From contig JAYENT010000026.1 in the NCBI GenBank assembly GCA_034722245.1, positions 461 through 64,460 of the forward strand: a stretch of 64,000 bases of DNA. The letters run 5' to 3'. Below the pieces are notes generated by a model that did not search any database, had not been told where the DNA came from, and saw only the letters and a program-made list of their open reading frames with translations. Numbering within the stretch: the stretch's first letter is position 1; the number at the start of each line of letters is the position of its first letter. A program made the translations under genes and the position numbers. The DNA is from Chloroflexota bacterium. Lineage in GTDB: Bacteria; Chloroflexota; Anaerolineae; UBA1429. Below are positions 16,416 to 49,562 of the stretch, in pieces.

Positions 16416-16535
16416 GGTTACAATTTCCTCTCTCTGGACTCTTGAGAAGCATATCAGAAACGCGTGTATCGTCAAGACGCCTTTGGTGTTGGAATAGTGT
16501 GGTATGGAATACACTGGATTTGCTGTATCGCCTCT

Positions 16536-18505: not shown

Positions 18506-20380
18506 ATGAGACGAGATATTTGCAAGAGGCTACATAGGCCTTTGCTTCTGCTCATATTGGGGACGGCACTAGCCTTGCGAGTTTATGGCATCGCGTGGGA
18601 CGGTGGATACCTCTTTCACCCTGATGAGCGCCAGATCATGTTTGTCGTGGACGCTCTGTCCTTCCCCTGGCCGCCGGATTGGTCCGTCCTTCTCTCTCCA
18701 GAAAGTCCCTGGAATCCCCATTTCTTTGCTTACGGGTCGTTTCCCATCTATCTCTTGCGCATTGCTACCGGTATCGTAGCACAGTTCAAGGGGGATTTTA
18801 GGGTTTTGCGGCAGGGATACCTATTGGGGCGTGCCTTGTCGGCCCTATTCGACGTGGGAACGGTGTATCTCACCTATCGTCTGGGGAGAAAGTTGTATGG
18901 GAAAGCGGTGGGCTTGCTGTCGGGGGGCCTTCTCGCTTGCGCTGTCTTGCATATCCAGCTCTCTCATTTTTACACCGTTGACACCCTTCTCGTCTTCTTT
19001 GTGGTCTGGACCGTGTCACTGTGTGTCGACTTGTCTCGGCTTCCGTCGTGGAGTATTGCGCTTCCCCTTGGCTCTGTCTACGGCCTTGCGCTGGCCACCA
19101 AAGTGAGCGCTGCCCCTCTGATGGTGCCCATTTCCCTGGCCTGGGTTTTTGTGGCGCTGAGACACTCAGAGAATGTGGAGGGTGAGGTTTGGCGCGGGCG
19201 CGGCCGGTGGTTCAAAGCGCTAGGAGGCCTTGTGCTGACGAGCGTGATCGCCCTGGTTGTGTTCGTATTCTGCGAGCCTTATGCCGTCCTCGACATTAGG
19301 AGCTTTCTTGTTGATATTATGGAGGAAGGGTATATGGCGCGTGTGGGGGCAGGCATCCCTTACACGAAGCAGTATATCGGGACGCGCGCCTATGTCTATC
19401 CCCTTCGGCAGACGGTGGTTTGGGCTGTGGGAGTGCCACTCGGGATAGCGGGATTCGGGGGTGCCTTGGCAGTGCTGGGCAAGACGGTGAAGGAGATTGC
19501 TAAAGGTCAATGGGCCTGTGCAGCAGAGGGCTTTTTGCCCCTTTCGTGGGGCTTGGTCTATTTTGGCATTGTCGGTTCTTTCCATACCAAATTTCTTCGC
19601 TATATGCTGCCCATCATCCCTTTTCTCTGCATGTGGGCGGCATGGCTCCTGGTTAGCGTCCTGCGCGTGCCAGGTATCCGCCGGCGCATTCGTAACGCGG
19701 TCGGGGTTGGGGTCTTTATCTTGGTGTTGGTGCCCACCGTTCTTTATGCTTTGGCCTTCATGAACGTCTACAGGGAGACGCATCCCTGGATTCAGGAAAC
19801 GGCGTGGCTGTGTCGAAACGTCCCTCCGGGGAGTCAGATTATGGTGGAGCACTGGGATGATCCCTTGCCTCTTGTCCAGGGGCAGGGAGATCTCGATTGC
19901 CACGGAGATTACAGGATAAGCGTCTTCCCCGCCTACCATGTGGATGACGAAGAGAAGTTGGCCACATTGTTATATCGGTTGGAGACGAGCGATTACATTG
20001 TCCTTTCCACTAATCGACTCTATAATACCATTCCCCGCCTGCCAGATCGTTATCCGCTTACGAGTCGATACTATGAACTGCTTTTGGGGGAGGAACTGGG
20101 CTATGAGCTTGTTCACTACGTGGCCGTCTATCCGCGTCTGTTCGGTGCGAACCTGATGAATGACACTTTTTCGGATCCCGATCTACCTAAGCCACACCTG
20201 TTAGCACAGCAGGAGACGGCACGTTGTAGCCTGAATCTTGGGCGGGCGGATGAGAGCTTTACCGTGTATGATCATCCCAAACCCTTGATATTCAAGAATA
20301 CGGGCCACCTGTCGCGGGAGGCGTTGCTGGCCCAGTTTGGGGATATTGTGGAAGAGTTCTCCGAAGACGCTGGGGAGTAG
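18506..20380 (+). CDS. Large polytopic membrane protein, GT-C-like glycosyltransferase candidate (HPDE loop); paralog of the N-terminal module of the 2482-aa protein
   Basis: MRRDICKRLHRPLLLLILGTALALRVYGIAWDGGYLFHPDERQIMFVVDAL...; C-terminal soluble part YRISVFPAYHVDDEEKLATLLYRLETSDYIVLSTNRLYNTIPRLPDRYPLTSRYYELL...FTVYDHPKPLIF matches giant-protein residues about 500-650; ATG 18506 just after the AI-2E gene stop. Confidence 0.6.
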   Translation: MRRDICKRLHRPLLLLILGTALALRVYGIAWDGGYLFHPDERQIMFVVDALSFPWPPDWSVLLSPESPWNPHFFAYGSFPIYLLRIATGIVAQFKGDFRVLRQGYLLGRALSALFDVGTVYLTYRLGRKLYGKAVGLLSGGLLACAVLHIQLSHFYTVDTLLVFFVVWTVSLCVDLSRLPSWSIALPLGSVYGLALATKVSAAPLMVPISLAWVFVALRHSENVEGEVWRGRGRWFKALGGLVLTSVIALVVFVFCEPYAVLDIRSFLVDIMEEGYMARVGAGIPYTKQYIGTRAYVYPLRQTVVWAVGVPLGIAGFGGALAVLGKTVKEIAKGQWACAAEGFLPLSWGLVYFGIVGSFHTKFLRYMLPIIPFLCMWAAWLLVSVLRVPGIRRRIRNAVGVGVFILVLVPTVLYALAFMNVYRETHPWIQETAWLCRNVPPGSQIMVEHWDDPLPLVQGQGDLDCHGDYRISVFPAYHVDDEEKLATLLYRLETSDYIVLSTNRLYNTIPRLPDRYPLTSRYYELLLGEELGYELVHYVAVYPRLFGANLMNDTFSDPDLPKPHLLAQQETARCSLNLGRADESFTVYDHPKPLIFKNTGHLSREALLAQFGDIVEEFSEDAGE

Positions 20381-20399
20381 TGCTGGTACGGGATTTCTT

Positions 20400-20428
20400 T
20401 TGTGAGTCGCCCCGTTGGATGTTATAAT
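20400..20428 (+). promoter_or_regulatory. Sigma70-like promoter (-35 TTGTGA, 17-nt spacer, -10 TATAAT)
   Basis: TTGTGA 20400-20405 and TATAAT 20423-20428 read directly; 30 nt upstream of the 20458 start. Confidence 0.4.
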
Positions 20429-20457
20429 TTGCTTCCTGCCCTTGTAGCTATGGTGTT

Positions 20458-21471: not shown

Positions 21472-21609
21472 ATCTTGAAGAACGGAAGCGACAGCGGAAT
21501 CTGTCGGCGCGTCTTGTGGCGGAGGTAGCTGGGACAAGAAGGCATAGGATTTTTTGCTAGAGCAAGAGGTGTAGAAGCGCTGTTTCGTGGCTCGCCTCAC
21601 GGGGTTTGG

Positions 21610-23622
21610 GTGCGGGAGGTGGAGTGTGACAAAGCGGTGAGTAAGCAACAGAAGCGTGCTAATCTTTGGTTGCTGGGCCTTTCCCTTGTATTGGCTGTGA
21701 CAGGGCAATACTATTTGGCCAATAAGCGCCAGTTCATGTGGGATGGGATCTTACTTTACGCTCTGGCCATGGTCCTCTTTGCTTGGGTCAGCGCGCGTAT
21801 CGAGAGCGGTGGACGTGAAAAAGGCCAAAAAGGCTTTCCCGGCCTGTGGCGGGGTATCTGGCGAGCGCTGAATCACAGTGTGCTTCGTTTGGCTTTGTTC
21901 CTCTCTGGCATTGCTTTAGTTATGTTTGTGAGCTTTGCCGCTAGCTCTCGTTCCGGAAGCAGGCCCTTTTACGACCTTCTCGCCTTGTGGGGCGTGGGTA
22001 TTCTTACGACTGGTGGAGCCTGTATCCCCTGGCAGGATATGACATTCCACCCCCAAGAATGGTGGAAACGCACAGTCGAGCAAGGTCCCGAGGCGTTGTT
22101 GATCCTAGTTCTTGCCTTGGCCACGTTTCTCACGCGAGTCGTTAATCTTGAGAATATCCCTTTTGTGCTAGATGGGGACGAGGCCGCCATGGGATTGGAG
22201 GCCGTGGCTGTCATTGAGGGAAGAAGGGTTAATCCCTTTGTGACCGGCTGGCTTTCCCATCCCACGCTTTACTTCTTTTTACAATCCCTCTTTTTGCGGC
22301 TCTTTGGCATTTCCATTGCCGCCCTGCGTTTTTCCTCTGCCTTTATTTCACCTTTTATCGTCATCCTCCTTTACTTTTTCACTCGACGCTTGTATGGACG
22401 GTGGGTGGCCATCTTGAGTGCCACGTTTTTTGCCGCCTATCACTATCCCCTGCACTTTGGGCGCATTGCCCTGAACAATATCTGGGACCCCTTTTTCGCT
22501 CTGGGGGCCATCTATTTTTTGACGGTGGGGCTAGAGGAACGGCAGTTGGCTTCAGTGTTGGTCGGCGGTGTGCTGACAGGGATGGCTATCTACTTTTACA
22601 TGGGCTCGCGATTGCTGCCCATCATATTGGTGCTCTATCTCCTTTACTGGGCGTTGACGGAGACGAACTTTTTGTGGGAAAATGCGGTCTACCTCTTCCT
22701 CTTTGGGCTGATGGCTTTTCTAGTGGCGCTCCCCCTGCTAAACTTTTTTCGCACCCATCCAGAAGATTTGGTGGCTCGTTGGGAATGGGTGGGGGTTTTT
22801 TCCTCGGATTGGGCAAAAGGGGAAATGCAGAAGACGGGCAAGACAGTTTGGGGGCTTATGCCAAATCAGTTGCTCAAGTCAGTGCTAGCCTTCAACTATT
22901 TCTCCGATCCCACCTTTTTCTATCATCCCAATACTCCTCTTTTGCACTTTGGTAGTTCGATCTTTTTTGTCGTGGGCTTGACCTATTCCCTCAGGCGGTG
23001 GCGGGAGAGGAGGTACTTTTTACTGCTGCTGTGGTTCTTTTTAGTTATCCTCTTTGGAGGTGTACTGCTCGAGAACCCTCCATCGAGCGCACGGTTTGTA
23101 CTTTCCATTCCTCCTGTTGTGCTTTTTGTGGTTTTTGGGGTATTCAAGGTTTCGTCGTATATTCAGAATAGTGTTAAGGCCCTTCCCAAGGTCGCTATGA
23201 TCTTGTCCCTGGTACTGATTCTGTTCTTGAGTTATCATAGTCTGTACTTTTACTTCTGCGATTACTCGCCCCAGCATCTGTATTCCTCGTATGGCAATAC
23301 TGAAGTTGCAACTGCAATTGCCCAGTATTTGAACTTGTTGGATGCAGACTATCGCTGGTATTTTTTTGGCCCCCCTCGGATCTACCATGATTTCCCTGTG
23401 ATCTCTTTTTTAGCACCCGAGGCGAAGGGAATGGATGTGGAGGAGTCTGTTTCCGGCAGAGTAGATTTTGTGGATCCCGTCTACGACGCGGTGTTCGTAT
23501 TCTTGCCTGAACGCCGGTCAGAGTTTGAGACGGTTCGTCGCCGCTATCCAGCTGGCGCTTTTCGCGAATTCACTAATGGAGAAGGGCGACTTCTGTTCGT
23601 TTCCTACGAGGTCGATCTGTGA
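21610..23622 (+). CDS. GT-C fold glycosyltransferase, ArnT/PMT (GT39/GT83)-like
   Basis: First periplasmic loop with DGDEA acidic motif, then RRLYGRWVAILSATFFAAYHYPLHFGRIALNNIWDPFFALGAIYFL typical of PMT_2 proteins; long hydrophobic protein with a C-terminal soluble region. Confidence 0.6.
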   Translation: MREVECDKAVSKQQKRANLWLLGLSLVLAVTGQYYLANKRQFMWDGILLYALAMVLFAWVSARIESGGREKGQKGFPGLWRGIWRALNHSVLRLALFLSGIALVMFVSFAASSRSGSRPFYDLLALWGVGILTTGGACIPWQDMTFHPQEWWKRTVEQGPEALLILVLALATFLTRVVNLENIPFVLDGDEAAMGLEAVAVIEGRRVNPFVTGWLSHPTLYFFLQSLFLRLFGISIAALRFSSAFISPFIVILLYFFTRRLYGRWVAILSATFFAAYHYPLHFGRIALNNIWDPFFALGAIYFLTVGLEERQLASVLVGGVLTGMAIYFYMGSRLLPIILVLYLLYWALTETNFLWENAVYLFLFGLMAFLVALPLLNFFRTHPEDLVARWEWVGVFSSDWAKGEMQKTGKTVWGLMPNQLLKSVLAFNYFSDPTFFYHPNTPLLHFGSSIFFVVGLTYSLRRWRERRYFLLLLWFFLVILFGGVLLENPPSSARFVLSIPPVVLFVVFGVFKVSSYIQNSVKALPKVAMILSLVLILFLSYHSLYFYFCDYSPQHLYSSYGNTEVATAIAQYLNLLDADYRWYFFGPPRIYHDFPVISFLAPEAKGMDVEESVSGRVDFVDPVYDAVFVFLPERRSEFETVRRRYPAGAFREFTNGEGRLLFVSYEVDL

Positions 23623-23911
23623 GGTTAGGTCGATGATGGGCGAACGTCGAGATGGGCTCTATTGGCGTGATGGCAGCGGCGCGTGAGCGTGACTGCGCAT
23701 TGAGGGGCAGCGGTGGGACGATGAACTCGCTAAGCCGTGGCCGGGTTGTCCTCCCAAAGGGCGTAGCGCTGAAACGTTCGTGCGATGAGGGCATACTACA
23801 TCTATGGCCTTTTATGGAGAGCGATAGGTTCTTGGTGGAGAGTGGTTCTCGGGACGGCGAGAGAAAAGGGAACACGCCAGTGTCCTTCTTGCACGGTGTC
23901 ATCCTGGAGAC

Positions 23912-26900
23912 ATGGCTCCTATGACAGGAGAGGATAAGTTCGTGACGTGGCAAGATGCGTCGCACGCTGTAAAGACAGTGTGGTCTCGACTTGGCAACCT
24001 GTCCTCCGACCGCCGTATGATGCTCAACTTGATGATAGTGATTCTTTTGATTGCAGGCGCGTTGCGTTTTACGGGGATAGATTGGGACGAGAATCAGCAC
24101 CTTCATCCCGACGAGCGCTTCTTGACCATGGTCGAGGACAGATTGCGATGGCCCAGTTCCTTCAAAGAGTATCTGGACTCCTCTGTGAACCCCCTCAGCC
24201 CCTACAATCAGGGTCACGACTACTATACCTATGGTTTGCTCCCCGTGGTTGTGACCAAGTTCATTGGTGAGATCGTGGGCGAGACGGGTTATGATAGCAT
24301 CTATCTCGTGGGGCGGGCGCTGAACGGCGTGCTTGACCTGTTTTCCATCGTGTTGATCTTTATCATGGGCAAGCGTCTCTATGACGCCCGTGTAGGGCTT
24401 TTGGGGGCCTTGTTTCTCGCTTTCAGCGTGCTTAACATTCAGAGCGCTCACTATTTCACCGTAGATACGTGGGTCACCTTTTTTGTAACCTTGGCCCTTT
24501 TCTATGCAATTCGCGTGGCCCAGGGGGAGGGATGGGGGAGTGTTCTAGCCATGGCTGTGGCTTTCGGCCTGGCCACGGCTTCCAAGATCAGCGTTCTCCC
24601 CTTTTTGCTTGTCATGGGTTTGGCCTACACGTTGAGGATCTGGAGACGATGGCAGGCTCACAGAGGTGGGGACTCCTCGCGTTTGATCCATCTGAGAAAG
24701 CAGTGGGGACGGTTTAATATCTTGCTTCGAGTTGAACCGGATGACGAGTGTGAGCCGGTGACGGATGGCGAGCGCCTGTTTTTCGAAATCCTTCGGGGGA
24801 CGCTTTCTTTCTTGGTGGCATTGGTCGTAGCCGCCCTTGTCTTCCGCGTGGCGCAACCTCACGCCTTCACGGGGCCCGGGCTGTTCAATTTCAAGCTCAA
24901 TCCCACATGGAAAGACGACATGAGTCATATCAGCAAGCTGACGAGCGGAGAGATCACTTGGCCCCCTAGTTACCAATGGACGGGCCGGACGCCGGTCCTT
25001 TTCATGCTCAAGAATATGGTATTTTGGGGATTGGGGTTGCCGTTGGGCATCGCGGCATGGGTCAGCTGGGCGTTTATAGGCTGGGAGATGTACAAGAAGG
25101 AGAAGCTGACCCATCTCCTCCCTTGGATGTGGATGACCTTTATCTTCCTCTATCACAGCACCCAGCACGTCAAGACCATGCGTTACCTGCTTCCCATCTA
25201 TCCCACGGCGGCCATGGTGGCCGCCTATGGTCTGATCAAGCTGTGGGATGGGGCCAGGGCATGGAGGGTGCATTATGGTCCGGAGAGGCGTCGGATACGC
25301 TGGGCGGTCGGCGTCCTGATTCTCGTCGTGGTGCTGGGTACGGCCTTTTGGGCCGTCGCCTTTACCAGCATCTATACGCGGCCGGTGACCCGCGTGGCGG
25401 CCTCGCGCTGGATGTACCGCAATCTTCCCCGGGGCGCCTCGGTATCCTATGAGGTGTGGGATGATCCTTTGCCTCTGAATATAGACGGACGTCTGGCGAG
25501 TTCCTACTTTGATCAGGTAAAAATGGATCTCTATGCGGAGGATACACCTGAAAAGCGGGAAAAGCTCTACGACTGGATAGAGAGAGCGGACTATATCGTT
25601 CTTTCGAGCAACCGCCTTTATAAGTCGATTCCTCGTCTTCCCATGCGCTATCCCATGACCACGCGGTACTATGAGGCCCTTTTCTCTGGGGAGCTTGGTT
25701 TTGAGCGTACAGCCACCTTTACCTCACGGCCAAAGCTGTTCGGAATTGAGATCGTCGACGACAATGCGGAGGAGGCCTTTACCGTATACGATCATCCCAA
25801 GGTGATCATCTTTAGGAAGCGCGCCGACTTTTCCATGGTCAGGGTGCGAAGGCTCTTTGAGGAGTATTCCCTTGATCGCATTGTGCGCATGAAACCCACG
25901 CAGGTGACGTCTGCGCCTAATGCTTTGATGCTCAGCGAAGAGGAATGGGCCGTACAACGCGCTGGCGGGACCTGGTCGACGATCTTTTCCCGGAACAGCC
26001 TGTCGAACAAGTTCCCGACGGTAACATGGCTTTTGGCCCTCTTTTATGTGGGATTTGCCGCCTTCCCCTTGGCCTTTGTGGCTTTTTGGCGCATGCGCGA
26101 TCGAGGGTATCTGCTCTCCAAAACCGTGGGCTTGTTAGTTATGAGCTACCTTGCCTGGCTCTTGCCCAGTTTGAAGGTGCTGCCTTATAGCCGAGGGCTC
26201 ATCGCTGGCGTGCTGTTGGGAGTGAGCGCCCTCTCTGCTGTGGTGGGATGGGTGCAAAGGCGCCCTCTACTGGACTTTGTGCGGCGACGCTGGCGTCTCC
26301 TCATAGTCGGTGAACTGCTGTTTCTGGCCTTCTTTTTCCTTTTCTGGCTTATACGCTTTCTCAACCCCGATCTCTGGCATCCGGTCATGGGCGGAGAGAA
26401 GCCCATGGATATGGCCTATCTCAACGCCATCATCAAGAGTACCCACTTTCCACCCTATGATCCCTGGTTCGCCGGCGGCTATATCAACTACTACTACTTT
26501 GGCTGGGTCGTGGCGGCCACGCTGATCAAGCTGACGGCCATCGTCCCCTCGGTGGCCTACAACCTGGCTATTCCCACGTTCTTTGCTCTCATGGCCATGG
26601 GCTCTACGTCCGTTGTCTTTAACCTGATACCCGCCGGAGAGGACGAGGATGGCTGGTTTCCCAGGGCGTTGGGTTATGGGCTCGTGGGCGCTTTGTTGGT
26701 GGCTGTGGCGGGCAACCTGGGCGAATTGCAACTCCTGTGGAATGGCTTCAAGGAACTGGGCAGTAGGGTTTCCTTTGAGAGCACCATTCCCGGGCTTGTG
26801 ACTCTGGTGCAGGTGGTTCGTGGGCTCTGGGCTTGGGTCGCGCAAGGCGAAAGGTTGCCCTTTCGCAGCGAGTGGTGGTATTGGAACGCCAGTCGCATCA

Positions 26901-29900
26901 TGAAGCACGGGGAGATCAACGAATTTCCTTTCTTTAGCTTTTTGTACGCCGACCTGCACGCCCATCTGACGGCCATGCCCTTTGCCATTTGCGCCTTGGC
27001 CCTGGCCAGCAACTTTGTCGTTGAGCCCGTGCGGTGCCTGTTCGGCCCGGCTGACGATGAGGAAGAAGGGGATAAGAGCGAGGGGACGCACGCCGAGGAT
27101 GTAGAGGGAATCCCTGTAGAAACGCGCGCACCTTTCTTGCCGGGCGTGGTACGCTCTGTGCTGCACTTCTTGCAGGGCCTGTCGTCGTGCATCCACTGGC
27201 CTATGATCGCTTCCCTGACCCTGCTCGCGCTGATCCTTGGGGAACTGTGGTGCAACAACTCTTGGGATTTCCCCACCTATGCTGGCGTGTCCGTGGTGGC
27301 CTTGGCCATAGGTTCGTATGCTGAGGCTGACAGGATCAACAAGAAGGTGGTGGCGCACTTCGCTCTTCGCGTCGCCTGCGTGCTGGCACTGAGCATGCTT
27401 TTCTTCCTGCCCTACCACGCCAACTATGGCCTGGCCTATTCCAGCGTGGATCTGTGGAAGGGGGAGCGTACGTCCATCGGCTCTTATCTTATCATTCATG
27501 GGACATTTCTTTTTATACTCGCCTCGTATCTTTTGGTGCTCCTTTTCGACAGGAGGCGCCGGAATGGAATCGTGCGTGCAATACGGCTGTTTCTTCAAGC
27601 CTGGGAGCGGCGAAGGCGTGCGCTGCATCTTTACGACCTCCTCGTGCGTTGCCCAAAGCTGGGCTACGAGCTGGGATGGCTGGGATTGGTTGTCTTGGGG
27701 ATCGTACTGCTTATATTCTTCCTAAAGCAGGCGTGGATCCTGTTGCTGGCGGCGCCTATACTCGCCTTGGCCCTGAGTGTCGTCCTCTTTACCCGAGTGC
27801 GGGCGGAGCGGCGTTTCCAGGCTGCCCTTGTGGGGATCGGACTGCTGTTGACCTTGGCTGTGGAGTATATCGTGCTAAAGGGCGACATTGGCCGTATGAA
27901 CACTGTGTTCAAGTTCTCCTTACAGGTCTGGATCATGTGGGGGGTGGTGGGGGGCGCAGCGTTGGCTTATCTGATCCCCCGCCATTGGGCCTGGCCGTCG
28001 CGCGTGCGTTCCGTATGGCGCAAAATGCTCATCTTTCTTCTCATTGGCGTTTCCCTCTATCCTCTGTGTGGTACCTATGGAAAGGTGAGAGATCGCTGGA
28101 ACCCCGATCTGCCACCGGGATTGGACGGCATGCGCTTTATGACGGGGGCACACTACCGGGATAATAATCGCGATTTGGCTCTGGAATATGATTATCGTGC
28201 CATCCGATGGATGCAGGAGCATATCAAGGGTTCGCCCGTCATCGCCGAGGCCAACACCCCCCTTTACCGCTGGGGGAGCCGCGTGTCCGTCTATACGGGG
28301 CTGCCGACCATCGTGGGTTGGGACTGGCATCAGAAGCAGCAGCGCGCTGCGGTCGGTAGTCAGGTGGTGGACTGGCGACTGGAGGATTTGCGGCTGCTCT
28401 ACAATACGCCCGATCCCGTGATGGCCGCTAACATTCTTGAGTGCTACCAGGTGGGCTACATCTATGTAGGCGAATTGGAGAAGGCCTATTACGACACGCA
28501 AGGTCTGGCCAAGTTCGGACGCATGGTTGGGTCCACGTTGGAGGTCGCTTATAGGCAGGGACCGGTGACCATCTATCGCGTCAAGGGATCGGGCGCTGGA
28601 TTGGTATCCTCAGATCCTGGAGGAGAAAGTCTCTGGAACACCGCGAAACGCTGGTTTGCCAAGCGCTGGTTGCCGGGTGTGGTGAGGGCCGAGGAGCCCC
28701 AGAAGCGTCCTCTTGGCGGGCTGCAGGCGATGGTGGGAGAGCCCTCGCTGATGTTGGACAAACCCGTTGATCAGTTGCCGGTGGTCGATGATCGAGGCTG
28801 GAATGGTCTGGCTGCGAACAGGACGATCTTTGCCCTGTTCTCGTGGTGGGTCGTGTTGCAGCTCCTTGGTTTGATCGCTCTCCCCCTGGTGGGGTATGCC
28901 TTTTCCCCTCTGCCGGACGGGGGGTATTATCTGAGCAAAGGGATCGGGCTGTTGCTCGTCAGCTATCTTGTGTGGCTTGGAACCAGCCTGCACGTGGTTG
29001 CCAACCGCCCTCATGTGGCCTGGGCCGCTTTGCTGTCGGCGGGAGGATGCTCTTTTTTTCTGTGGTGGCGCCACCGCCGTCGTCTGCGCAGGGCGTGGCG
29101 CCGACAACGGAGATTGATTCTGGTGGAGGAGGGCCTATTTAGCATCGCTTTTCTGCTCTTCGTCGGCCTGCGTCTCCTCAATCCGGATCTTTGGCAGCCC
29201 TGGTTCGGCGGGGAAAAGATGATGGAGATAGCTTTCCTAAACGCCATCTGTAAATCCGCCCACATGCCGCCGTATGATCCCTATTTCGCTGACGGGTACA
29301 TCAACTACTACTATTATGGGCAATTCATCGTCGCCACGTTGATCAAGCTCACGGGGGTGTTTCCTCGGGTGGCTTTCAATCTGGCCGTGCCCACCTTCTT
29401 TGGGCTGACCGTCTCCCATGTCTTTGGCGTCTCCTATGGTCTCGTAGCTTTGGGTGAGGAAGGGGTGGAAGAGACTGGAAGAGCAGAAGACGACGCTGGA
29501 ACTGCTGGCATTGCTCCTCGTGCCAGTCCCATCTCCTCCAGGGGGCTGTGGGCAGGGATAGGGGCAGTGGTGCTGGTGGCCGTCATGGGCAACCTCTCTG
29601 GCATACTCCAGGTGCTGGAGTGGCTTGCGAGGGCGGGCGGGGCCTCCTTTCCGGAGGGTCACGTCGCCTGGGCGGATATCCCGTACATTATTCCGGGGCT
29701 GGTGCACACGATACGTCAGGGGATCCCATTGCATTTCGAATACTGGTACTATGGCACGCGCATCATCCCCCACACCATCAACGAGTTTCCCTTTTTTACC
29801 TTTCTCTTTGCCGATCTGCATCCTCATCTGATGGGCATTCCCTTCACTATACTTGTCGTGGGGCTGGCTGCCTCTTTGCTGTGGAGCAAAAGGCGTCCTT

Positions 29901-31360
29901 TAGGGCGCTCTGTCGTGGGCGGGATTCTGACCATCATCGCTCTGGGCGCTCTGGGAGTGATCAATACGTGGGATCTGCCCGCCTATGCGGCGCTTCTGGG
30001 GTGTGTATTGCTCTATTGTGGCTATATATACGGAGGATGGCGAGGAGCGTTGGCCGGCGGGGGCGCTTTCTCGGTCCTTTTTTTGCTTTCTTTGATCGCC
30101 TACGGGCCCTTCTACACCCACTATCGGGCCCAGTATGTGGGCTTGGGGATCGTCTCTCCGGGTGAGCGCACGCGCCTGGGGCCGTTTATGCTTATTTGGG
30201 GCTTTTACGTTTTTTTAACCATCTCTATGGCCTTTTTTTGGACGGGGCGGGCCTGGCCGTGGTCCCGTCTTGCCGCCTTGGTGCAAAGGCATGGACTGGC
30301 CCGCGTCATGCATCACCTTTGGACTTTACGAAGGGCAGGGACCGTGGCCTGGAGCATCTATTCTCTGTCGGTTGCGGCGTTGATGGCCGTGGGCATCTTT
30401 CTTGTCCTATCCGAGGTATGGCTATGGGCACTGCTTGTTCCCCTCGCAGGGTTAACGGGGCTGGCCGTCCTCTGCAGTGGGATGGATCGAGCCGCCTTTT
30501 TTCGGCGCCTGATGGCACTTGGGGCTTTTTGCATCCTCTGGTTGGTGGAAGTCTTTTACATGAAGGATTTCCTGGCCAGCTCCGAGTGGCGACGTATGAA
30601 TACCATCTTCAAGTTCTACATCCAGGCCTGGGTGTTGCTCGGTTTGGCTGTGGGCGGCACTTTGCCCATACTATGGGATAGGCTGAGGGGACACCTGGGC
30701 GCTGTGTGGAAGGGCGCCTTTCTCTTGGGGCTGTTCGCGTCTCTAGTGTACACGGCGTTGGCGATTCCCGCGCGGGTGACGCAGCGGTTTCTCGACGCCC
30801 AGCCGCCGACGGGCACCCTCGATGGCACGTCCTACATGAAGACGGCGGTCTACTCCTGGCCGGATGAGGAAGACGAGATCCACCTCAAGTACGACCGTCA
30901 GGCCATCGCCTGGCTCTGGGAGAATGTGCGGGGTACGCCAGTGCTCGCCGAGGCGCCGCTGGGATATTATCGAGAAGGGGGGCTGCGAGTCTGTTCCTAC
31001 ACCGGCTTGCCAATGATCATCGGCGCCCATGAGAATGAGCAGCGCCCCTGGGAGCAGTTGGGCTCGCGCCAGGAAGATGCGGAGGCCATTTTTCGAAGCA
31101 CGGATGTCGAGAGGGTGCAGGATCTCCTGGACAAGTATCGCGTGCGCTACATTTACGTGGGGCAACTGGAGCGCAACGCCTATGATGCGGCGGGGTTGGC
31201 CAAATTCGATGTCCTGGTAGATCAAGGGGCCATCACGCGCGTGTTCCACAACGCGGGAGTCGATATTTACAGAGTCGTGGAGGACAGGCTGTCTAAGAGA
31301 ACCGGGGCCCCATATTCGGAGATAGTTGTAAGGAGTTTTGGTCTGTGCTGCAGGTCCTGA
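23912..31360 (+). CDS. Giant (2482 aa) integral membrane protein: N-terminal GT-C-like module plus two tandem Chlor_Arch_YYY (DUF2298/TIGR03662) modules
   Basis: Single uninterrupted ORF; N-terminus HLHPDERFLTMVED...YEVWDDPLPLNIDGRL paralogous to the 18506 gene; two copies of PDLW(H/Q)P(V/W)(M/F)GGEK(P/M)M(D/E)(M/I)A(Y/F)LNAI(I/C)KS(T/A)H(F/M)PPYDP(W/Y)FA(G/D)GYINYYY(F/Y)G with YYYxG motif; each followed by conserved periplasmic tail GLP(T/M)I(V/I)G...YIYVG(E/Q)LE. Confidence 0.75.
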   Translation: MAPMTGEDKFVTWQDASHAVKTVWSRLGNLSSDRRMMLNLMIVILLIAGALRFTGIDWDENQHLHPDERFLTMVEDRLRWPSSFKEYLDSSVNPLSPYNQGHDYYTYGLLPVVVTKFIGEIVGETGYDSIYLVGRALNGVLDLFSIVLIFIMGKRLYDARVGLLGALFLAFSVLNIQSAHYFTVDTWVTFFVTLALFYAIRVAQGEGWGSVLAMAVAFGLATASKISVLPFLLVMGLAYTLRIWRRWQAHRGGDSSRLIHLRKQWGRFNILLRVEPDDECEPVTDGERLFFEILRGTLSFLVALVVAALVFRVAQPHAFTGPGLFNFKLNPTWKDDMSHISKLTSGEITWPPSYQWTGRTPVLFMLKNMVFWGLGLPLGIAAWVSWAFIGWEMYKKEKLTHLLPWMWMTFIFLYHSTQHVKTMRYLLPIYPTAAMVAAYGLIKLWDGARAWRVHYGPERRRIRWAVGVLILVVVLGTAFWAVAFTSIYTRPVTRVAASRWMYRNLPRGASVSYEVWDDPLPLNIDGRLASSYFDQVKMDLYAEDTPEKREKLYDWIERADYIVLSSNRLYKSIPRLPMRYPMTTRYYEALFSGELGFERTATFTSRPKLFGIEIVDDNAEEAFTVYDHPKVIIFRKRADFSMVRVRRLFEEYSLDRIVRMKPTQVTSAPNALMLSEEEWAVQRAGGTWSTIFSRNSLSNKFPTVTWLLALFYVGFAAFPLAFVAFWRMRDRGYLLSKTVGLLVMSYLAWLLPSLKVLPYSRGLIAGVLLGVSALSAVVGWVQRRPLLDFVRRRWRLLIVGELLFLAFFFLFWLIRFLNPDLWHPVMGGEKPMDMAYLNAIIKSTHFPPYDPWFAGGYINYYYFGWVVAATLIKLTAIVPSVAYNLAIPTFFALMAMGSTSVVFNLIPAGEDEDGWFPRALGYGLVGALLVAVAGNLGELQLLWNGFKELGSRVSFESTIPGLVTLVQVVRGLWAWVAQGERLPFRSEWWYWNASRIMKHGEINEFPFFSFLYADLHAHLTAMPFAICALALASNFVVEPVRCLFGPADDEEEGDKSEGTHAEDVEGIPVETRAPFLPGVVRSVLHFLQGLSSCIHWPMIASLTLLALILGELWCNNSWDFPTYAGVSVVALAIGSYAEADRINKKVVAHFALRVACVLALSMLFFLPYHANYGLAYSSVDLWKGERTSIGSYLIIHGTFLFILASYLLVLLFDRRRRNGIVRAIRLFLQAWERRRRALHLYDLLVRCPKLGYELGWLGLVVLGIVLLIFFLKQAWILLLAAPILALALSVVLFTRVRAERRFQAALVGIGLLLTLAVEYIVLKGDIGRMNTVFKFSLQVWIMWGVVGGAALAYLIPRHWAWPSRVRSVWRKMLIFLLIGVSLYPLCGTYGKVRDRWNPDLPPGLDGMRFMTGAHYRDNNRDLALEYDYRAIRWMQEHIKGSPVIAEANTPLYRWGSRVSVYTGLPTIVGWDWHQKQQRAAVGSQVVDWRLEDLRLLYNTPDPVMAANILECYQVGYIYVGELEKAYYDTQGLAKFGRMVGSTLEVAYRQGPVTIYRVKGSGAGLVSSDPGGESLWNTAKRWFAKRWLPGVVRAEEPQKRPLGGLQAMVGEPSLMLDKPVDQLPVVDDRGWNGLAANRTIFALFSWWVVLQLLGLIALPLVGYAFSPLPDGGYYLSKGIGLLLVSYLVWLGTSLHVVANRPHVAWAALLSAGGCSFFLWWRHRRRLRRAWRRQRRLILVEEGLFSIAFLLFVGLRLLNPDLWQPWFGGEKMMEIAFLNAICKSAHMPPYDPYFADGYINYYYYGQFIVATLIKLTGVFPRVAFNLAVPTFFGLTVSHVFGVSYGLVALGEEGVEETGRAEDDAGTAGIAPRASPISSRGLWAGIGAVVLVAVMGNLSGILQVLEWLARAGGASFPEGHVAWADIPYIIPGLVHTIRQGIPLHFEYWYYGTRIIPHTINEFPFFTFLFADLHPHLMGIPFTILVVGLAASLLWSKRRPLGRSVVGGILTIIALGALGVINTWDLPAYAALLGCVLLYCGYIYGGWRGALAGGGAFSVLFLLSLIAYGPFYTHYRAQYVGLGIVSPGERTRLGPFMLIWGFYVFLTISMAFFWTGRAWPWSRLAALVQRHGLARVMHHLWTLRRAGTVAWSIYSLSVAALMAVGIFLVLSEVWLWALLVPLAGLTGLAVLCSGMDRAAFFRRLMALGAFCILWLVEVFYMKDFLASSEWRRMNTIFKFYIQAWVLLGLAVGGTLPILWDRLRGHLGAVWKGAFLLGLFASLVYTALAIPARVTQRFLDAQPPTGTLDGTSYMKTAVYSWPDEEDEIHLKYDRQAIAWLWENVRGTPVLAEAPLGYYREGGLRVCSYTGLPMIIGAHENEQRPWEQLGSRQEDAEAIFRSTDVERVQDLLDKYRVRYIYVGQLERNAYDAAGLAKFDVLVDQGAITRVFHNAGVDIYRVVEDRLSKRTGAPYSEIVVRSFGLCCRS

Positions 31361-33747: not shown

Positions 33748-33784
33748 GATGTGAAGTCGTGTACTGCGAGGAGGCGTGCGGGTG

Positions 33785-33793
33785 TGTTATAAT
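33785..33793 (+). promoter_or_regulatory. Possible extended -10 promoter element (TGtTATAAT)
   Basis: TGTTATAAT at 33785-33793, 50 nt upstream of the 33843 start; no good -35. Confidence 0.3.
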
Positions 33794-33842
33794 CTCGGTG
33801 ATTCCTACGCATTGGACTGGCAATTCGCGTATCGGCTAGGAG

Positions 33843-35657
33843 GTGAATGAGCCGCTCATGGCCGTCAATTCCACCGGGTTACGCTCATGGTCTCCTTCCT
33901 CTTTTGAGGAGGTGGCTTCTGGTATAGCAAGGGGTATCACGGAGCATGGCGTGGTGCCCCGGTCGCTGACCGTCGAGGTCGCGCTGTACGGGCTCATCAC
34001 CTTTGCCGCCTTGATAGTACGGTTGGCGGCGCTGGGGCGCTGGCCCCTTTTGGAGAACGAGGCGCACACAGCGCTGGCAGCATGGCGCGCTCTGCAAGGG
34101 GCGCCGCCCGTGCGTGCTTTTGACTATGTCCCGCTGCTTTACGATGCGAACCTGCTGCTCTTTGCCCTATCACAGGCCTCAGACGCGGCCGTGCGTCTGC
34201 TGCCCGCTTTCATGGGGGCTGCCCTTGTACTGCTTCCTTATTTCTGCCGGGATGTGTTGGGGCGTCAGGGAAGCCTGCTGGCTTCTCTGTTGCTCGCCTT
34301 CGCGCCTACGTGGGTCTTTTTCTCACGCACGGCAGAGGGGGCCATCCTCATCGCCACCTTGAGTGGGGTCATATTGCTCTCGGTCAGTCGCTATCTACAG
34401 GAGGGCCATGCAGGCCGTTTGCAGTTGGCTTTTGTCGCCCTGGGATTGGGACTGACCGCCGGGCCGGGGATGTACACCTTCTTGCTCTATGCTTTCCTGT
34501 ACGGCGGCGTGTGGTGGCTTACTCAGCGTGATGATGTCCCCCGCAACCGCCTGCGGAGATTGCTCGAAGGGGCTTTCACTAGACGCAATGTCCTGAGTCT
34601 TGTAGGAACATTCCTCCTTTTCGGCAGCGCCTTCCTGACCAACCCTGGTGGCATTGGGGCTAGTGTCAATCTGGGCGGTCAGTGGGTACGTGCGCTGTCC
34701 TCCGAGGCGGATTTGTCGTCCCTCGCCCTCGTGAAGACGTTGCTGACGTACGAGTTCTTGACCATGGCCCTTGCCCTTGTGGGTCTCGTGTGGGGGCTGC
34801 GGCAAAAGGACACTGTCACCCTTTTTCTGGCTTTGTGGATTTTTTGGGGACTGTTGCTGAGCATCCCCTTGGGGCACCGTGAACCACGCTGGCTACCCAA
34901 TTTACTGTTGCCACTGGTCATCCTGGCGGCGAGGGGGTTTCAGTATCTTTGGGATCACGTGCTCGCTGGCGCAGGTTGGGACGAGGGGATAGCATTTTGG
35001 GTGATGGTTGCTTTGACGGCCTTTGGTTTCCTGGAACTCTTTGCTTTTACACATACGGCGCAAGAGAGGTATCTCTTCTACGCTGCCGGAGGCTGCTTGA
35101 TGCTGTTGGCTATGTGGGTCGCGTGCTGGTTTTGGCTTGGTCGCCGTGGGGCCTTGGCCGTCGGCGCGGGACTCCTGCTGTTGTCCATGGGTATCATGAC
35201 TATCAGGGCTTCTACGGCGGTAGCTTACCAGACTGGACGCGATGCGAGGGAGGGATTGGTTTATCGTCCCGCGTCCATGCAACTGCGTTTACTGGAGCGC
35301 TTTTTGCTTGACCTCTCCAGTCGCCGAACGGGAGGGCTGCATGCTCTGGACATCGACTACGAGGAAGCGTTGGATCCCTGGATGAGTTGGTATCTGCGCG
35401 ATTATCCCAACGCGCGTTCCGTGCCACTTGCCGATTCCCAGACGGCGACGAGCGCCCTCATCACCAGTGAGCGCTCAGAAAAACAGTGGCCCGCGGGCTA
35501 TGCGGGACAGCGCTTCTATCTTTGGGAGCATCACCCGGCGCAGGACCTTTCGGGGCGGCAGTGGCTGCGGTGGTTTTTCTATCGCGATGCTGTGGGGACC
35601 ATAGAGGCCAGACAAGTTCAAGTGTGGATACGTCTTGGTGGAGATGGTGAGCAATAG
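33843..35657 (+). CDS. Polytopic membrane protein, TIGR03663-like (GT-C-related family co-occurring with YYY proteins)
   Basis: About 12 TM segments (LTAGPGMYTFLLYAFLYGGVWWL etc.) with a C-terminal soluble segment; N-terminal region similar in organisation to the N-terminal part of the 35679 protein. Confidence 0.5.
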   Translation: MNEPLMAVNSTGLRSWSPSSFEEVASGIARGITEHGVVPRSLTVEVALYGLITFAALIVRLAALGRWPLLENEAHTALAAWRALQGAPPVRAFDYVPLLYDANLLLFALSQASDAAVRLLPAFMGAALVLLPYFCRDVLGRQGSLLASLLLAFAPTWVFFSRTAEGAILIATLSGVILLSVSRYLQEGHAGRLQLAFVALGLGLTAGPGMYTFLLYAFLYGGVWWLTQRDDVPRNRLRRLLEGAFTRRNVLSLVGTFLLFGSAFLTNPGGIGASVNLGGQWVRALSSEADLSSLALVKTLLTYEFLTMALALVGLVWGLRQKDTVTLFLALWIFWGLLLSIPLGHREPRWLPNLLLPLVILAARGFQYLWDHVLAGAGWDEGIAFWVMVALTAFGFLELFAFTHTAQERYLFYAAGGCLMLLAMWVACWFWLGRRGALAVGAGLLLLSMGIMTIRASTAVAYQTGRDAREGLVYRPASMQLRLLERFLLDLSSRRTGGLHALDIDYEEALDPWMSWYLRDYPNARSVPLADSQTATSALITSERSEKQWPAGYAGQRFYLWEHHPAQDLSGRQWLRWFFYRDAVGTIEARQVQVWIRLGGDGEQ

Positions 35658-35678
35658 ACTGAAGGAGAGAGCACGCGA

Positions 35679-38600: not shown

Positions 38601-38759
38601 GCCTTCGACAGCCAGGGTGAGCTCTTGCGTGTGTGGGGCCAGAAGGGCGGGGCTCTCTCTTCCATGAACCTACCCACGGGTGTTGCTGTGGACCCGTCGG
38701 GCCGCCTGTTGATCAGCGACTCGGAGAACGGTCGCCTGCTGGTCTTTGAGGAGCACTGA
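35679..38759 (+). CDS. Fusion protein: N-terminal GT-C-like polytopic membrane domain (about 730 aa) plus C-terminal six-bladed NHL-repeat beta-propeller
   Basis: N-terminus ...YSHDESIHAWESWKLITGQGYSHDPTYHGPFLYHFTAFIF... with many TM segments; C-terminus has six repeats such as NVYVADTHNHRIQVFD, DIYIADTWNHRIQVFD, NLYVTDTGNKRVIKYD, DLYVADTWNQRIQVFD, NVYATDPEGYRVLAFD, RLLISDSENGRLLVFE (NHL consensus). Confidence 0.7.
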   Translation: MSEKKEIAFLDRPIIGDRIAWWKVIYALLILFVVFTRLWALAPRGYSHDESIHAWESWKLITGQGYSHDPTYHGPFLYHFTAFIFGLFGHNDYTARLSPALFGIALAVLPLLLKKWLGKKGVPAATFLIAISPVMMHRSRFLRHDVYVAVFNLLLFISSLRYLDQRKTKDLYLVAAATSLGFCAKETTFITYFIFGTFWALLFLSQWLRERTRPWRELPVFDLIIVMGTLILPLASPFLIRVLGGDPLDYTQQGILFSGAIFLVVLGISAAIGFWWDWRRWLVCAGIFYGIFVPLFTTMFTNGRGFATGTVGQLGYWLSQQGVRRGDQPPYYYLVLMPMYEFLPLLGAIGGGIYFFSKRSQDEEAVEDAPTGIPFVPMLLYWSVLAFVIYSWAGEKMPWLTMHLALPLQLLAGWAIGRLFDADWGELREKGALWLLLLIPLFIYVILRLLNLNPSAGTTRQELSETMAWLTSLLVGLGLVVAISRILYRLSGGQRWRIGLVSLFIILSMLTVRFAWMASFVNADLPTEFLVYAQGTPDVALVAKEIEEMSRRLTGGLHMKVAYDDDSSWPFVWYLRKFDNAQFYGQEPAGPFDAEVVLVGPPNESAVKPLLGNDYYRRQYRLIWWPNQDWYMSPELKSIRQGMKEKRIAGKLSDLLLYLKTMLKKIWRVVRDKSARQNLWDVFFYREYEASLTSWPHVHKFALYVRRDVAQQLWDYGPEVLTAAEPLPGDEYVEKWEQIMATDAFGSSGSGPGQLNRPKGIGVDEDGNVYVADTHNHRIQVFDGDGQFLRQWGAEGNQSGQFKEPWGVTVGPEGDIYIADTWNHRIQVFDVRGQLKRVWGTFGEVKDPMGSGDLLYGPRDLVVDAEGNLYVTDTGNKRVIKYDAEGNMIKAVGGAGSEEGQMQEPVGLALSPEGDLYVADTWNQRIQVFDKDLDFLRSWPVYAWEGMSVLNKPYLAVDAEGNVYATDPEGYRVLAFDSQGELLRVWGQKGGALSSMNLPTGVAVDPSGRLLISDSENGRLLVFEEH

Positions 38760-38772
38760 CGGGGAAGAAGCC

Positions 38773-39426
38773 ATGATGCTGAACGTCGACGTGTTTCTCT
38801 TCGATTTCGATGGCACCCTGATCGAGCCCACTATCGATTTTGATTTGATGCACCGGAAGGTGCTCAAGATAGTGCGCGATTTTGGTGTGGCAGATCGTTC
38901 GCTGAGGCAGTTGCATACCCTGGAGACCGTAGAGACGGTCGAGGCGCGGTTGCGGGACGACCATGGTGCGCGCGAAGAATTTCTGAAACGGGTACATGCT
39001 TCTATCCTCGATCTGGAACTGGAGGCAGCGGAACATGCCCATGCCTATCCGGGCGTCCCCGAGATGCTGGACGAACTGGCCACCAGGGGATTTGGGGTAG
39101 GCATCGTGACGCGCAACTCTCGTGCTGCCGTGATGCGCATCCTGCGGCGATTCCCGCTCCACTATGACGTGCTCCTCACCCGGGATGACGTGGCCCATGT
39201 CAAGCCGGACCCTCGTCACCTATTGAGGGCTTTGGAACACTTTTCTGAGGGGCGACGGCGCGCCGCCATGTGCGGGGACCATCCCATGGATGTGGTCGTG
39301 GGCAAGCGTATCGGCGCCCTGACAGTGGGCGTTCTACAGCCCGGCATGTCGGAGGAGCGCTTTGCAGGAGTGGACCCCGATCTCGTGGTCTCGCACCCGC
39401 CAGAGTTGTTGGAGTATGTGGGTTGA
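38773..39426 (+). CDS. HAD-superfamily hydrolase (phosphatase)
   Basis: DVFLFDFDGTLIEP motif I (DxDG); GVGIVTRNSR...; K...GDHPMDVVVGKRIG motifs III/IV; ATG 38773 is 14 nt after the upstream stop. Confidence 0.75.
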   Translation: MMLNVDVFLFDFDGTLIEPTIDFDLMHRKVLKIVRDFGVADRSLRQLHTLETVETVEARLRDDHGAREEFLKRVHASILDLELEAAEHAHAYPGVPEMLDELATRGFGVGIVTRNSRAAVMRILRRFPLHYDVLLTRDDVAHVKPDPRHLLRALEHFSEGRRRAAMCGDHPMDVVVGKRIGALTVGVLQPGMSEERFAGVDPDLVVSHPPELLEYVG

Positions 39427-39581
39427 TTGGAACTGCCAGCCTGCCGTCGGAAATATCCTGACGGAGCCTTTACAAAGAGTCATAGTAGAGGGGGCCACGG
39501 AATGAGCGGCAGCGATCAACGTGCGGGCATCGGCTGCTCGATTGGAATAGGGATCAAAAGTACGGTAGGTCAGGGGGATCC

Positions 39582-40211
39582 TTGTCATCCATATCGCAAG
39601 AGGGAGAGGCTTCGGGTAGGGTAACCAATCCACACCCCGATCGCGTGGAGGTGGTTTCAACCGAACGCGCCTTCGACGGTTTTTTCAGGATCGACCGTGT
39701 GCGGTTCCGCCACGCTAGGTACGACGGCGGCATGAGTGACGAGATTACCCGTTTGGTCTTTGAGCGGGGCGATTCCGTCGCCGTGCTGCCCTACAACCGC
39801 AAGCGAAGTGAAGTTGTTCTCGTCAAGCAGTTTCGCTATCCCGCGCACGTACGGGGCGGTCCGGGCTGGCTGTGGGAGATCATCGCTGGCGTGCAGGAGG
39901 AGGGGCTGGCCCCGAAAGAGGTGGCGCGCAAGGAAGCCCTAGAGGAGGCGGGATACCAACTTGGCGATCTGGAAAAGATAATGACCGTCTATCCCAGTCC
40001 TGGGGCTTGCTCCGAACGCATACACATCTATCTGGCGCCCTTTGAGCAAACAGATCGTGTGGCGGAGGGCGGCGGCATTGAATCGGAGGATATCCTTGTG
40101 CGCACCTTCTCATTGGATGAGGCGCGCCGCATGATGGAGGACGGCGATATTGTGGATGCCAAGACGACGCTTGCTCTGCAATACTTGATCCTCCATTGGG
40201 ATGACGAGTAA
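39582..40211 (+). CDS. nudF: ADP-ribose/ADP-sugar pyrophosphatase (NudF-like Nudix hydrolase)
   Basis: FDGFFRIDRVRFRHARYDGGMSDEITRLVFERGDSVAVLPYN...EIIAGVQEEGLAPKEVARKEALEEAGY aligns along its length with E. coli ADP-ribose pyrophosphatase including the Nudix box; exact start uncertain. Confidence 0.75.
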   Translation: MSSISQEGEASGRVTNPHPDRVEVVSTERAFDGFFRIDRVRFRHARYDGGMSDEITRLVFERGDSVAVLPYNRKRSEVVLVKQFRYPAHVRGGPGWLWEIIAGVQEEGLAPKEVARKEALEEAGYQLGDLEKIMTVYPSPGACSERIHIYLAPFEQTDRVAEGGGIESEDILVRTFSLDEARRMMEDGDIVDAKTTLALQYLILHWDDE

Positions 40212-49551: not shown

Positions 49552-49562
49552 TAACTTTTATT

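Follow-up and report, generated by a model that had tools for sequence, protein, structure and literature searches.

A conserved Chloroflexota array of predicted GT-C-type membrane proteins, including YYY/DUF2298 fusions, with a likely role in extracytoplasmic glycosylation

Introduction

What does a bacterium do with seven consecutive genes that encode very large membrane proteins? The question is raised by a 64,000-nucleotide stretch of chromosomal DNA from an uncultured bacterium of the Anaerolineae (lineage UBA1429; assembly GCA_034722245.1, contig JAYENT010000026.1, positions 461 to 64,460 of the forward strand), which we call the window and whose own coordinates are used throughout, and it falls within a phylum, the Chloroflexota, whose cell envelope is little understood in both composition and biogenesis. 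Open reading frame (ORF) calling places seven co-directional ORFs on the + strand at 18506-38759, all of them encoding large polytopic proteins (hereafter the array, P1-P7), and bears out the lengths, spacings and motifs given in an original prediction that had been made from the DNA letters without database searches. That prediction held the array to be a self-contained machine of glycosyltransferase-C-like (GT-C) proteins that transfers lipid-linked sugars to an extracytoplasmic acceptor, a view that our results bear out in part.

Our analysis leads us, with moderate confidence, to view the array as a phylum-wide Chloroflexota set for glycosylation at the outer face of the cytoplasmic membrane, a reading based on folds, family membership, motif conservation, fusions and synteny. 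Most likely it would glycosylate an envelope glycan or lipoglycan step by step on the extracytoplasmic side, with polyprenyl-phosphate sugars as donors.

Results

The array proteins resolve into recurring modules. The largest of them, P4 (23912-31360; 2482 aa), is by its sequence a fusion of three modules, which adds to the original description: pairwise BLAST aligned its residues 28-655 with P1 (31% identity), residues 703-1555 with P5 (YYY module A, ~29-30%) and residues 1645-2453 likewise (module B, ~33%). The fusion consists of one HPDE (GT39-like) module with its C-terminal domain (23912-25990; HPDE at residues 65-68, nt 24104-24115), followed by YYY/DUF2298 module A (25991-28800; GEKP at residue 828, PYDPW at 848, YYY at 860-862, DLHAH at 1014, RMNTVFKF at 1328) and module B (28801-31360; PYDPY at 1787, YYY at 1799-1801, DLHPH at 1968, RMNTIFKF at 2228). 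The seven-protein array thus comes to eight GT-C-type modules, with P2 counted besides: two HPDE modules (P1 and the N-terminal part of P4), one PMT_2 protein (P3), three YYY modules (two in P4, and P5) and two Agl23-like proteins (P6 and P7).

Family assignments support this division. P1 (18506-20380; 624 aa) is a predicted stand-alone HPDE glycosyltransferase of the GT-C type, GT39/PMT_2-like, with HPDE at residues 38-41 (nt 18617-18628) and a soluble C-terminal domain of ~200 aa; alternative starts exist, the longest ORF beginning at 18392 and the NCBI product, which is named GT39, having 612 aa. It passed the gathering threshold of Pfam PMT_2 (PF13231; 26.1 bits) with 38.5 bits and also matches Pfam PMT. 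P3 (21610-23622; 670 aa; GDEA at residues 189-192, nt 22174-22185), a predicted PMT_2-type GT-C glycosyltransferase, passed with 48.4 bits and P7 with 43.1, and P6 fell just below at 23.8. For the YYY proteins, the relevant cut-offs (27.8 bits for PF10060 and 300 for TIGR03662, or Chlor_Arch_YYY) were exceeded by both P4 (737 and 1026 bits) and P5 (382.5 and 562.4 bits), the best TIGR03662 stretch of P4 lying in module B (residues 1641-2455). When profiles built from orthologues in related loci were compared with hhalign, the HPDE family, P3, P6 and P7 proved mutually homologous at a probability of 92-100%, with P3 reaching 99% to the HPDE family and 98.6-98.9% to P6 and P7, and P6 reaching 100% to P7 (98.9-100% across P3 and P7); P2 is unrelated to these GT-C families. 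Pfam and NCBIfam thus agree with the labels originally proposed (PMT_2, flippase-like, YYY, TIGR03663-like, NHL, HAD and Nudix), except that P6 stays below the cut-offs.

The YYY family is a large one, with 7,547 representatives at 50% identity (E <= 1e-10), and about a dozen of the best 150 representatives are multi-module proteins of 1,700-2,750 aa. In the TIGRFAMs descriptions, TIGR03662 reportedly has single- and double-copy architectures and is said to co-occur with TIGR03663. Searching the PDB by sequence returned no match, whether with profiles made from P5 and P1 homologues or with P7, P2 and P3 as single queries, and the GT-C assignment of the YYY family therefore rests on predicted structure. 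The model of P5 (31345-33747; 800 aa), the stand-alone YYY/DUF2298 protein, was built with 69 homologues and is of high quality (predicted local distance difference test 90.3, predicted template modelling score 0.94), and its eight Foldseek matches with E < 0.001 were AglB, AftA, DPY19 and PglB. Both the P1 and the P5 model are confident, the tops of their fold-search lists hold GT-C enzymes only, and structure comparison recovers the conserved polytopic core of the GT-C fold. To this fold the P5 model adds three N-terminal helices and an AglB-like C-terminal globular domain, and the C-terminal domain of P1 is AglB-like as well. According to these models, YYY/DUF2298 proteins adopt the GT-C fold and end in a C-terminal domain like that of AglB, and the GT-C character that had been proposed for the array held up in the structures predicted for P1 and P5.

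The same structural neighbours invite a different reading, in which the YYY and HPDE proteins resemble oligosaccharyltransferases (OSTs) or PMTs and glycosylate secreted or surface proteins (S-layer, sheath or pili) on Asn, Ser or Thr, with the NHL propeller and the AglB-like C-terminal domains binding polypeptide. AglB, PglB, STT3B, Pmt1/2/4 and DPY19 are all protein glycosyltransferases, P1 carries the NCBI name GT39, and Agl23 belongs to an archaeal S-layer glycoprotein glycosylation pathway (PMC11182771). However, no STT3 Pfam match was found among the nine proteins (P1-P7 and the two genes that follow them, P8 and P9), P1, P4 and P5 contain no WWD, and the array proteins are without the STT3/AglB/PglB sequence signature that includes WWDYG. 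Moreover, AftA, ALG12, ArnT and AftB, which act on glycan or lipid acceptors, score equally well or better in the fold search; relatives fuse PA14, a carbohydrate-binding-type domain; eight modules far exceed what known protein glycosylation systems need; and the array conserves no candidate target protein. The AglB-like C-terminal domains and the PMT and OST structural neighbours make a protein acceptor a serious rival, although we consider it unlikely.

Residue conservation is as expected of enzymes in most of the modules. The motifs HPDE and YDPWFAGGYINYYYFG and the rest of the motif set were located in the array proteins, and no exception was seen to HPDE (25/25 sequences), to the Asp of P3 (14/14) or to the HDES of P7 (19/19 orthologues). 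Among 136 YYY modules, 55 positions are kept in at least 93%, and those of the window, which all carry the YYYxG motif, retain every one of them, apart from a Gly (P5 position 152) that is Asp in module B. The polar conserved positions, in P5 numbering, are E126, D147, Y157-159, R290, E307, D317, H319, H321, N391, D394, R582, N584, K588, Q592, E691, H718, R723, R732 and E766, and these invariant polar residues occur in all three modules. The conserved acidic residues that the original prediction took to be catalytic were accordingly found, with a single exception: in P6 the Glu is invariant (42/42, P6 and 41 orthologues), but the preceding Asp position is variously D, A, E, S or H, so that the acidic pair does not hold there. 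This variability makes use of the same catalytic Asp unlikely, and P6 is probably non-catalytic or has a different role.

P6 apart, conserved acidic residues lie in the predicted first extracytoplasmic loop after core helix 1, as had been proposed, although for the YYY proteins the proposed location in the first loop of the protein did not stand, since the EKPME and PPxDPW...YYY segment of the P5 model comes after the fourth helix (95-118). E126 and D147, kept in 135/136 and 132/136 YYY modules, sit in the loop after this helix, and two weak hhalign alignments match helix 95-118 to the first PMT_2 helix, with E126 aligned to the DE Glu. The loop after P5 helix 1 is rich in Arg, which by the positive-inside rule would put the N-terminus outside. 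Such an orientation fits the P4 fusion, in which the C-terminal soluble domain of each module directly precedes the next YYY helix. Hydropathy-based counts of transmembrane segments were crude, with overlapping segments, and served only for locating soluble domains.

The co-conservation on which the original prediction depended is strong, and none of the three refuting conditions set with that prediction was borne out. Scanning one genome per species yielded 565 relatives, from which 80 loci were kept, from Anaerolineae, Caldilineales, Ardenticatenales, Thermoflexus and Chloroflexia, and these loci were examined by tBLASTn and by unbiased clustering of all their ORFs; locus counts are limited by 10-kb flanks and short contigs. 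The gene order PMT_2, HPDE+YYY, YYY, P6 and (P7) is conserved in most of the 80 loci, a recurrence across species that shows the arrangement not to be due to chance. YYY genes are present in all 80, Agl23-like genes in 58 and PMT_2/HPDE-type genes in 40. The commonest layout runs LPG_synthase_TM, GT4, methyltransferase, PMT_2 (~750 aa), HPDE+YYY fusion (1500-1950 aa), YYY (~850 aa) and P6-like (~600 aa); HPDE+YYY fusions are the usual state, and a P7-like gene is found in a subset of loci only. The window departs from this layout by an additional stand-alone HPDE gene, the triple fusion, and the lack of GT4 and methyltransferase. Relatives at 49-78% identity have the same order: (P1, P2, GT4, methyltransferase), P3, an HPDE+YYY+YYY giant of 2346-2518 aa, YYY, P6-like and a P7-like gene with NHL.

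This conservation bears on whether the genes form a system at all, rather than being tandem paralogues that arose by duplication, each serving an unrelated glycan and adjacent for historical reasons. Paralogue groups do exist (P1 with P4 module 1, the three YYY modules, and P6 with P7), and copy number varies by clade, with two or three YYY modules, one or two copies of P3, and P7 present or absent. Nevertheless, the order of the four families is kept at 35-45% protein identity across several classes, HPDE and YYY modules are fused in most genomes despite having no detectable sequence homology, and array genes overlap or lie only 21-95 nt apart, all of which makes the lack of a common system very unlikely. 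From P1 through the Nudix gene (P9), successive intergenic distances are 77, 138, 289, -16, 95, 21, -14 and 155 nt, the first negative value being the 16-nt overlap of P4 and P5.

One part of the original prediction, that the array is self-contained, did not survive: it has no linked donor synthase, and in relatives a soluble GT4 and an S-adenosylmethionine (SAM) methyltransferase are encoded between P2 and P3. In the window, the P2-P3 gap (21472-21609) measures 138 nt; the two genes occupy it in three of the relatives (L088-L090) and in 21 other loci. As accessory genes recurring upstream, GT4 was found in 21 loci, LPG_synthase_TM in 15 and SAM methyltransferases in 14 + 4. The contig of the nearest relative of P1 (L097) ends just after P1 and is thus silent on GT4 and methyltransferase. 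In L088-L090, lepA stands between an AI-2E transporter gene and P1, which is not so in the window or L097. The array of another relative (L086; JBAWAP010000337.1, 17921-22562) is extended by PMT_2 modules fused to PA14 and NHL (1286 and 1060 aa), and the 243-aa GT2 between these genes is a candidate polyprenyl-phosphate sugar synthase. A locus labelled as a Methanosarcinales archaeon metagenome-assembled genome (L066; JAIWHF010000015.1, coverage 0.38) has the layout of an Anaerolineales locus (L064) with near-identical match coordinates; it is probably a Chloroflexota contig binned into an archaeal genome, and hence not evidence for the array in Archaea.

P2 (20458-21471; 337 aa) is a flippase-like membrane protein of the MprF transmembrane-domain family (UPF0104), with 162.7 bits to PF03706 (LPG_synthase_TM; cut-off 33.4) over residues 14-313 and 69.8 bits to TIGR00374 (cut-off 43.2). 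Genes of its type sit at either end of the array in 15 loci.

The two Agl23-like proteins raise the further possibility of carrier-lipid handling. P7 (35679-38759; 1026 aa) joins an Agl23-family GT-C module (residues 1-~720, HDES at 48-51) to a C-terminal NHL beta-propeller (residues ~750-1026), the latter recognized by 176 bits over five stretches (Pfam). Against TIGR03663 (cut-off 126.25 bits) P7 scored 288.8 and passed, and P6 (33843-35657; 604 aa; ENEA at residues 71-74, nt 34053-34064), an Agl23-like GT-C-fold paralogue, and P1 failed with 101.4 and 24 bits. TIGR03663 is now named 'flippase activity-associated protein Agl23' in NCBIfam, after Haloarcula hispanica Agl23, a putative hexose-P-dolichol flippase, which when purified translocated lipid-linked oligosaccharide in liposomes and which suppressed a yeast rft1 deletion (PMC11182771). 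The original view that neither family had an experimentally defined function therefore fails for TIGR03663, for which there are genetic and in-vitro data, and stands for YYY.

By analogy with the Haloarcula protein, some or all of the Agl23-like and YYY modules could be flippases or scramblases for polyprenyl-linked sugars, in keeping with the membership of P7 in TIGR03663 and with the missing Asp of P6. Set against this are the invariant HPDE, HDES and YYY acidic and His residues, as expected for catalysis, the presence in the array of a dedicated flippase-like protein, P2, structural neighbours that are all transferases, and large extracytoplasmic domains (NHL, AglB-like) that flipping does not require. 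In addition, the annotated Agl23 gene of Halogeometricum borinquense plasmid pHBOR02 (L096, 284541-286912) overlaps a GtrA-family gene by 4 nt. GtrA-family proteins are the usual flippase partners of GT-C transferases; their pairing with Agl23 sits oddly with Agl23 as a flippase and suggests that flipping is done by the partner, so Agl23-like proteins may yet be transferases. For P7 itself, with its invariant HDES, a transferase role appears more likely, and carrier-lipid handling as the business of these modules strikes us as distinctly improbable.

Where the sugar donor would come from was considered for the genes around the array. A UbiA-family polyprenyl-phosphate phosphoribosyltransferase is encoded at 15549-16514 on the - strand, passing two NCBIfam equivalog cut-offs (NF008977, 275.9 bits versus 234) and named decaprenyl-phosphate phosphoribosyltransferase by NCBI, and its sequence implies a polyprenyl-phospho-ribose or -arabinose pathway in Chloroflexota. 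This gene suggests a donor-specific version of our favoured explanation, a pathway for a ribofuranose or arabinofuranose polymer that may be likened to mycobacterial arabinan synthesis or to the three-component pentofuranose systems, in which UbiA would make polyprenyl-phospho-ribose-5-phosphate, the HAD phosphatase dephosphorylate it, P2 flip the product and the GT-C modules polymerise or attach it. Known pentofuranose systems do comprise a synthase, a HAD-family phosphatase, a flippase and a GT-C enzyme (PMC11127046), UbiA is 60-85% identical across Anaerolineae, which makes it more conserved than the GT-C genes, and it lies 2 kb upstream of P1 in the window, L088-L090 and L097. However, UbiA is always divergent from rpsI, and in two other Anaerolineae (L094, L095) it stands beside rpsI/rplM with unrelated genes on its other side; since it keeps these neighbours and not the array, its proximity reflects clade synteny, and we rejected it as an array member. 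No UbiA was found within 10 kb of P5 in any of the 80 loci, and the genetic linkage of phosphoribosyltransferase and GT-C genes that marks pentofuranose systems is missing. The ORFs scanned in the window include no DprE1/DprE2-like epimerase, and the HAD gene is absent from distant arrays. UbiA is a possible donor-making enzyme of this genome, unsupported by gene context, and a pentofuranose pathway seems to us improbable.

The HAD phosphatase gene (P8; 38746-39426, + strand) lies directly downstream of P7 and is followed by a gene for a YffH/AdpP-type Nudix hydrolase (P9; 39582-40211, + strand), as originally described. P8 is a HAD-IA hydrolase whose best models are of the PpaX and phosphoglycolate phosphatase types, all with scores below cut-offs; its gene does not adjoin UbiA. 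Starting at the first TTG, its ORF overlaps the end of P7 by 14 nt (38746-38759); two ATG codons lie 9 and 10 codons further on, the first at nt 38773, just beyond the P7 stop, and the overlap is therefore uncertain. As parts of the system P8 and P9 are unsupported: they adjoin P7 only in nearer relatives (L004, L005, L087), as a HAD-Nudix-CCA block, sucCD separates them from P7 in L002 and L007, and distant arrays are without them.

Housekeeping genes flank the array: rpoA, truA and rplM precede it, and genes for a CCA-adding enzyme, SecD and SecF lie downstream. Over 18-38 kb the AT skew ranges from -0.16 to -0.30, and in the rest of the window it is mostly near zero, a pattern that may stem from T-rich codons for hydrophobic residues. 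GC skew is positive across nearly the entire window, and the + strand carries almost all genes as far as 46 kb. An extended -10 promoter-like site (20400-20428; TTGTGA, 17 nt, TG-TATAAT) occurs in the 77 nt separating P1 from P2. Rfam and tRNA scans of the window gave no matches. The region at 45475-64000 is unrelated to the array: it contains glycerate 2-kinase-like, sugar-acid dehydratase-like and aldo-keto reductase genes (45475-50573), a solute-binding protein gene, two ABC exporter genes (52213-55916, - strand), a CBM9 protein gene beside a subtilase (57835-59913, - strand), and additional enolase-superfamily and amidohydrolase genes.

Discussion

We infer a donor type, an acceptor, a topology, complex formation and an order of action for the array as follows. 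In the cytoplasm, enzymes whose genes lie outside the array would charge polyprenyl phosphate with sugars, and in relatives the GT4 and methyltransferase of the array probably produce, or prime, an acceptor that is lipid-linked or a glycolipid. P2, perhaps together with the Agl23-like proteins, would flip the lipid-linked species, after which the GT-C modules would add sugars successively to a shared acceptor on the extracytoplasmic side, for which an envelope polysaccharide or lipoglycan is the likeliest candidate. Since nearly all genomes join HPDE and YYY modules in a single polypeptide, these may act as a physical hetero-oligomer; P6 could be a non-catalytic partner or a handler of the carrier lipid, and the NHL propeller of P7 might hold the acceptor. 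A glycan or lipoglycan acceptor is favoured because of the number of modules, the GT4 and methyltransferase of relatives, the PA14 fusions and the gene context of a Firmicute homologue. On plasmid pNP95 of Pseudobutyrivibrio xylanivorans (L092, 70272-72527), a DUF2298 gene lies within a surface-polysaccharide cluster that also encodes two GT2 enzymes, a glucosyltransferase-domain protein, an aminotransferase, an O-antigen ligase family protein and a sugar epimerase/dehydratase, which by analogy would lend independent support to a YYY role in envelope glycans. The only YYY match on an archaeal replicon in PLSDB (Halarchaeum) spans the origin of its record, and its neighbours are uninformative.

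Several results weigh against this explanation. In the hhalign comparison, the YYY family shows no detectable sequence homology to the remaining GT-C families (probability <36%), and its active site is inferred rather than mapped. P6 is without the Asp of the DE motif, and the one studied relative, Agl23, has been reported as a flippase and not as a transferase. The array of the window includes no donor synthase, neither a polyprenyl-phosphate sugar GT2 nor anything similar, and the nearby UbiA is unlinked. Promoter and terminator scans gave the same counts as shuffled sequence and are uninformative on co-transcription, and the AglB-like C-terminal domains would suit a protein acceptor no less than a glycan. 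Lastly, DUF2298 and TIGR03662 have only incidental mentions in open-access full texts, which hold no YYY biochemistry or genetics, and no functional study was found in the open-access literature on DUF2298, on the TIGR03662/TIGR03663 names or on a Chloroflexota GT-C cell envelope.

The GT-C fold and the habitual fusion to GT39-like modules nonetheless turn a 'domain of unknown function' into a testable enzyme hypothesis, and the array gives a defined gene set for tracing the envelope glycan of Chloroflexota, just as a single polypeptide with three GT-C modules offers a natural model for the cooperation of GT-C hetero-oligomers. More tentatively, YYY/DUF2298 proteins may be an unrecognised OST-related branch of the GT-C enzymes that, in tandem with GT39-like modules and Agl23-like partners, forms a membrane 'assembly line' for an undescribed major envelope polymer or protein-linked glycan of Chloroflexota. 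If so, since the YYY and Agl23 families are shared with Archaea, their pairing could extend there and account for a step of surface glycosylation in Archaea that has no assigned enzyme; should the array prove to decorate a known type of glycan in an ordinary way, the significance would be modest.

The kind of system, GT-C enzymes with a flippase, is already known; what is new is the YYY family, predicted to combine the GT-C fold and an AglB-like domain, together with the tandem fusions and an eight-module array that spans the phylum. The Agl23/Agl22 pathway of archaeal S-layer glycoprotein glycosylation uses polyprenyl (dolichyl) phosphate hexoses at the membrane's outer face (PMC11182771). 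P7 resembles Agl23 as a member of TIGR03663 that is PMT_2-like and has an invariant DE-type motif, but it differs in its C-terminal NHL propeller, in its position among seven other GT-C modules and in having no adjacent Agl22-like GT2, and P6 differs in falling below the family cut-off and lacking the Asp. From PMT/PMT_2 (GT39) and ArnT (GT83) enzymes, to which sequence identity is 12-15%, the array proteins are set apart by having no MIR domain and by their C-terminal domains, AglB-like in P1 and an NHL propeller in P7. Compared with AglB, PglB and STT3, the YYY proteins have no STT3 Pfam match, WWDYG or PDB profile match, they carry three extra N-terminal helices, and their motifs EKPME, PPxDPW, YYY, DxHPH and RMNTxFKF are family-specific, so that their likeness to oligosaccharyltransferases, as judged from the models, is structural only.

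Assembly of mycobacterial arabinogalactan and lipoarabinomannan likewise employs GT-C enzymes (AftA-D, EmbA/B/C, PimE) with PimA-type GT4 priming and polyprenyl-phosphate donors. In profile searches of the PDB, P5 and P1 are not detectably related to these in sequence, and the array further differs in the covalent fusion of its enzymes, in the absence of DprE1/2 among the window ORFs scanned and in belonging to a Chloroflexota envelope. P2 covers the entire Pfam model of the MprF flippase domain (PF03706; model positions 2-302 of 302), but unlike MprF it lacks the lysyl-phosphatidylglycerol synthase domain, and in phmmer searches it matches no solved structure. Finally, three-component systems (GtrA/GtrB/GtrC-type, and pentofuranose systems with GT136) combine a lipid-phosphate sugar donor, a flippase and a GT-C transferase (PMC11127046), the same logic as that of the array, with P2 as the flippase analogue. 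In place of one GT-C module the array has eight, its flippase candidate belongs to the MprF transmembrane family and not to GtrA, MATE or SMR, and it contains no donor synthase. Whereas three-component systems decorate a polymer that is made elsewhere, the Chloroflexota array may make the polymer itself.

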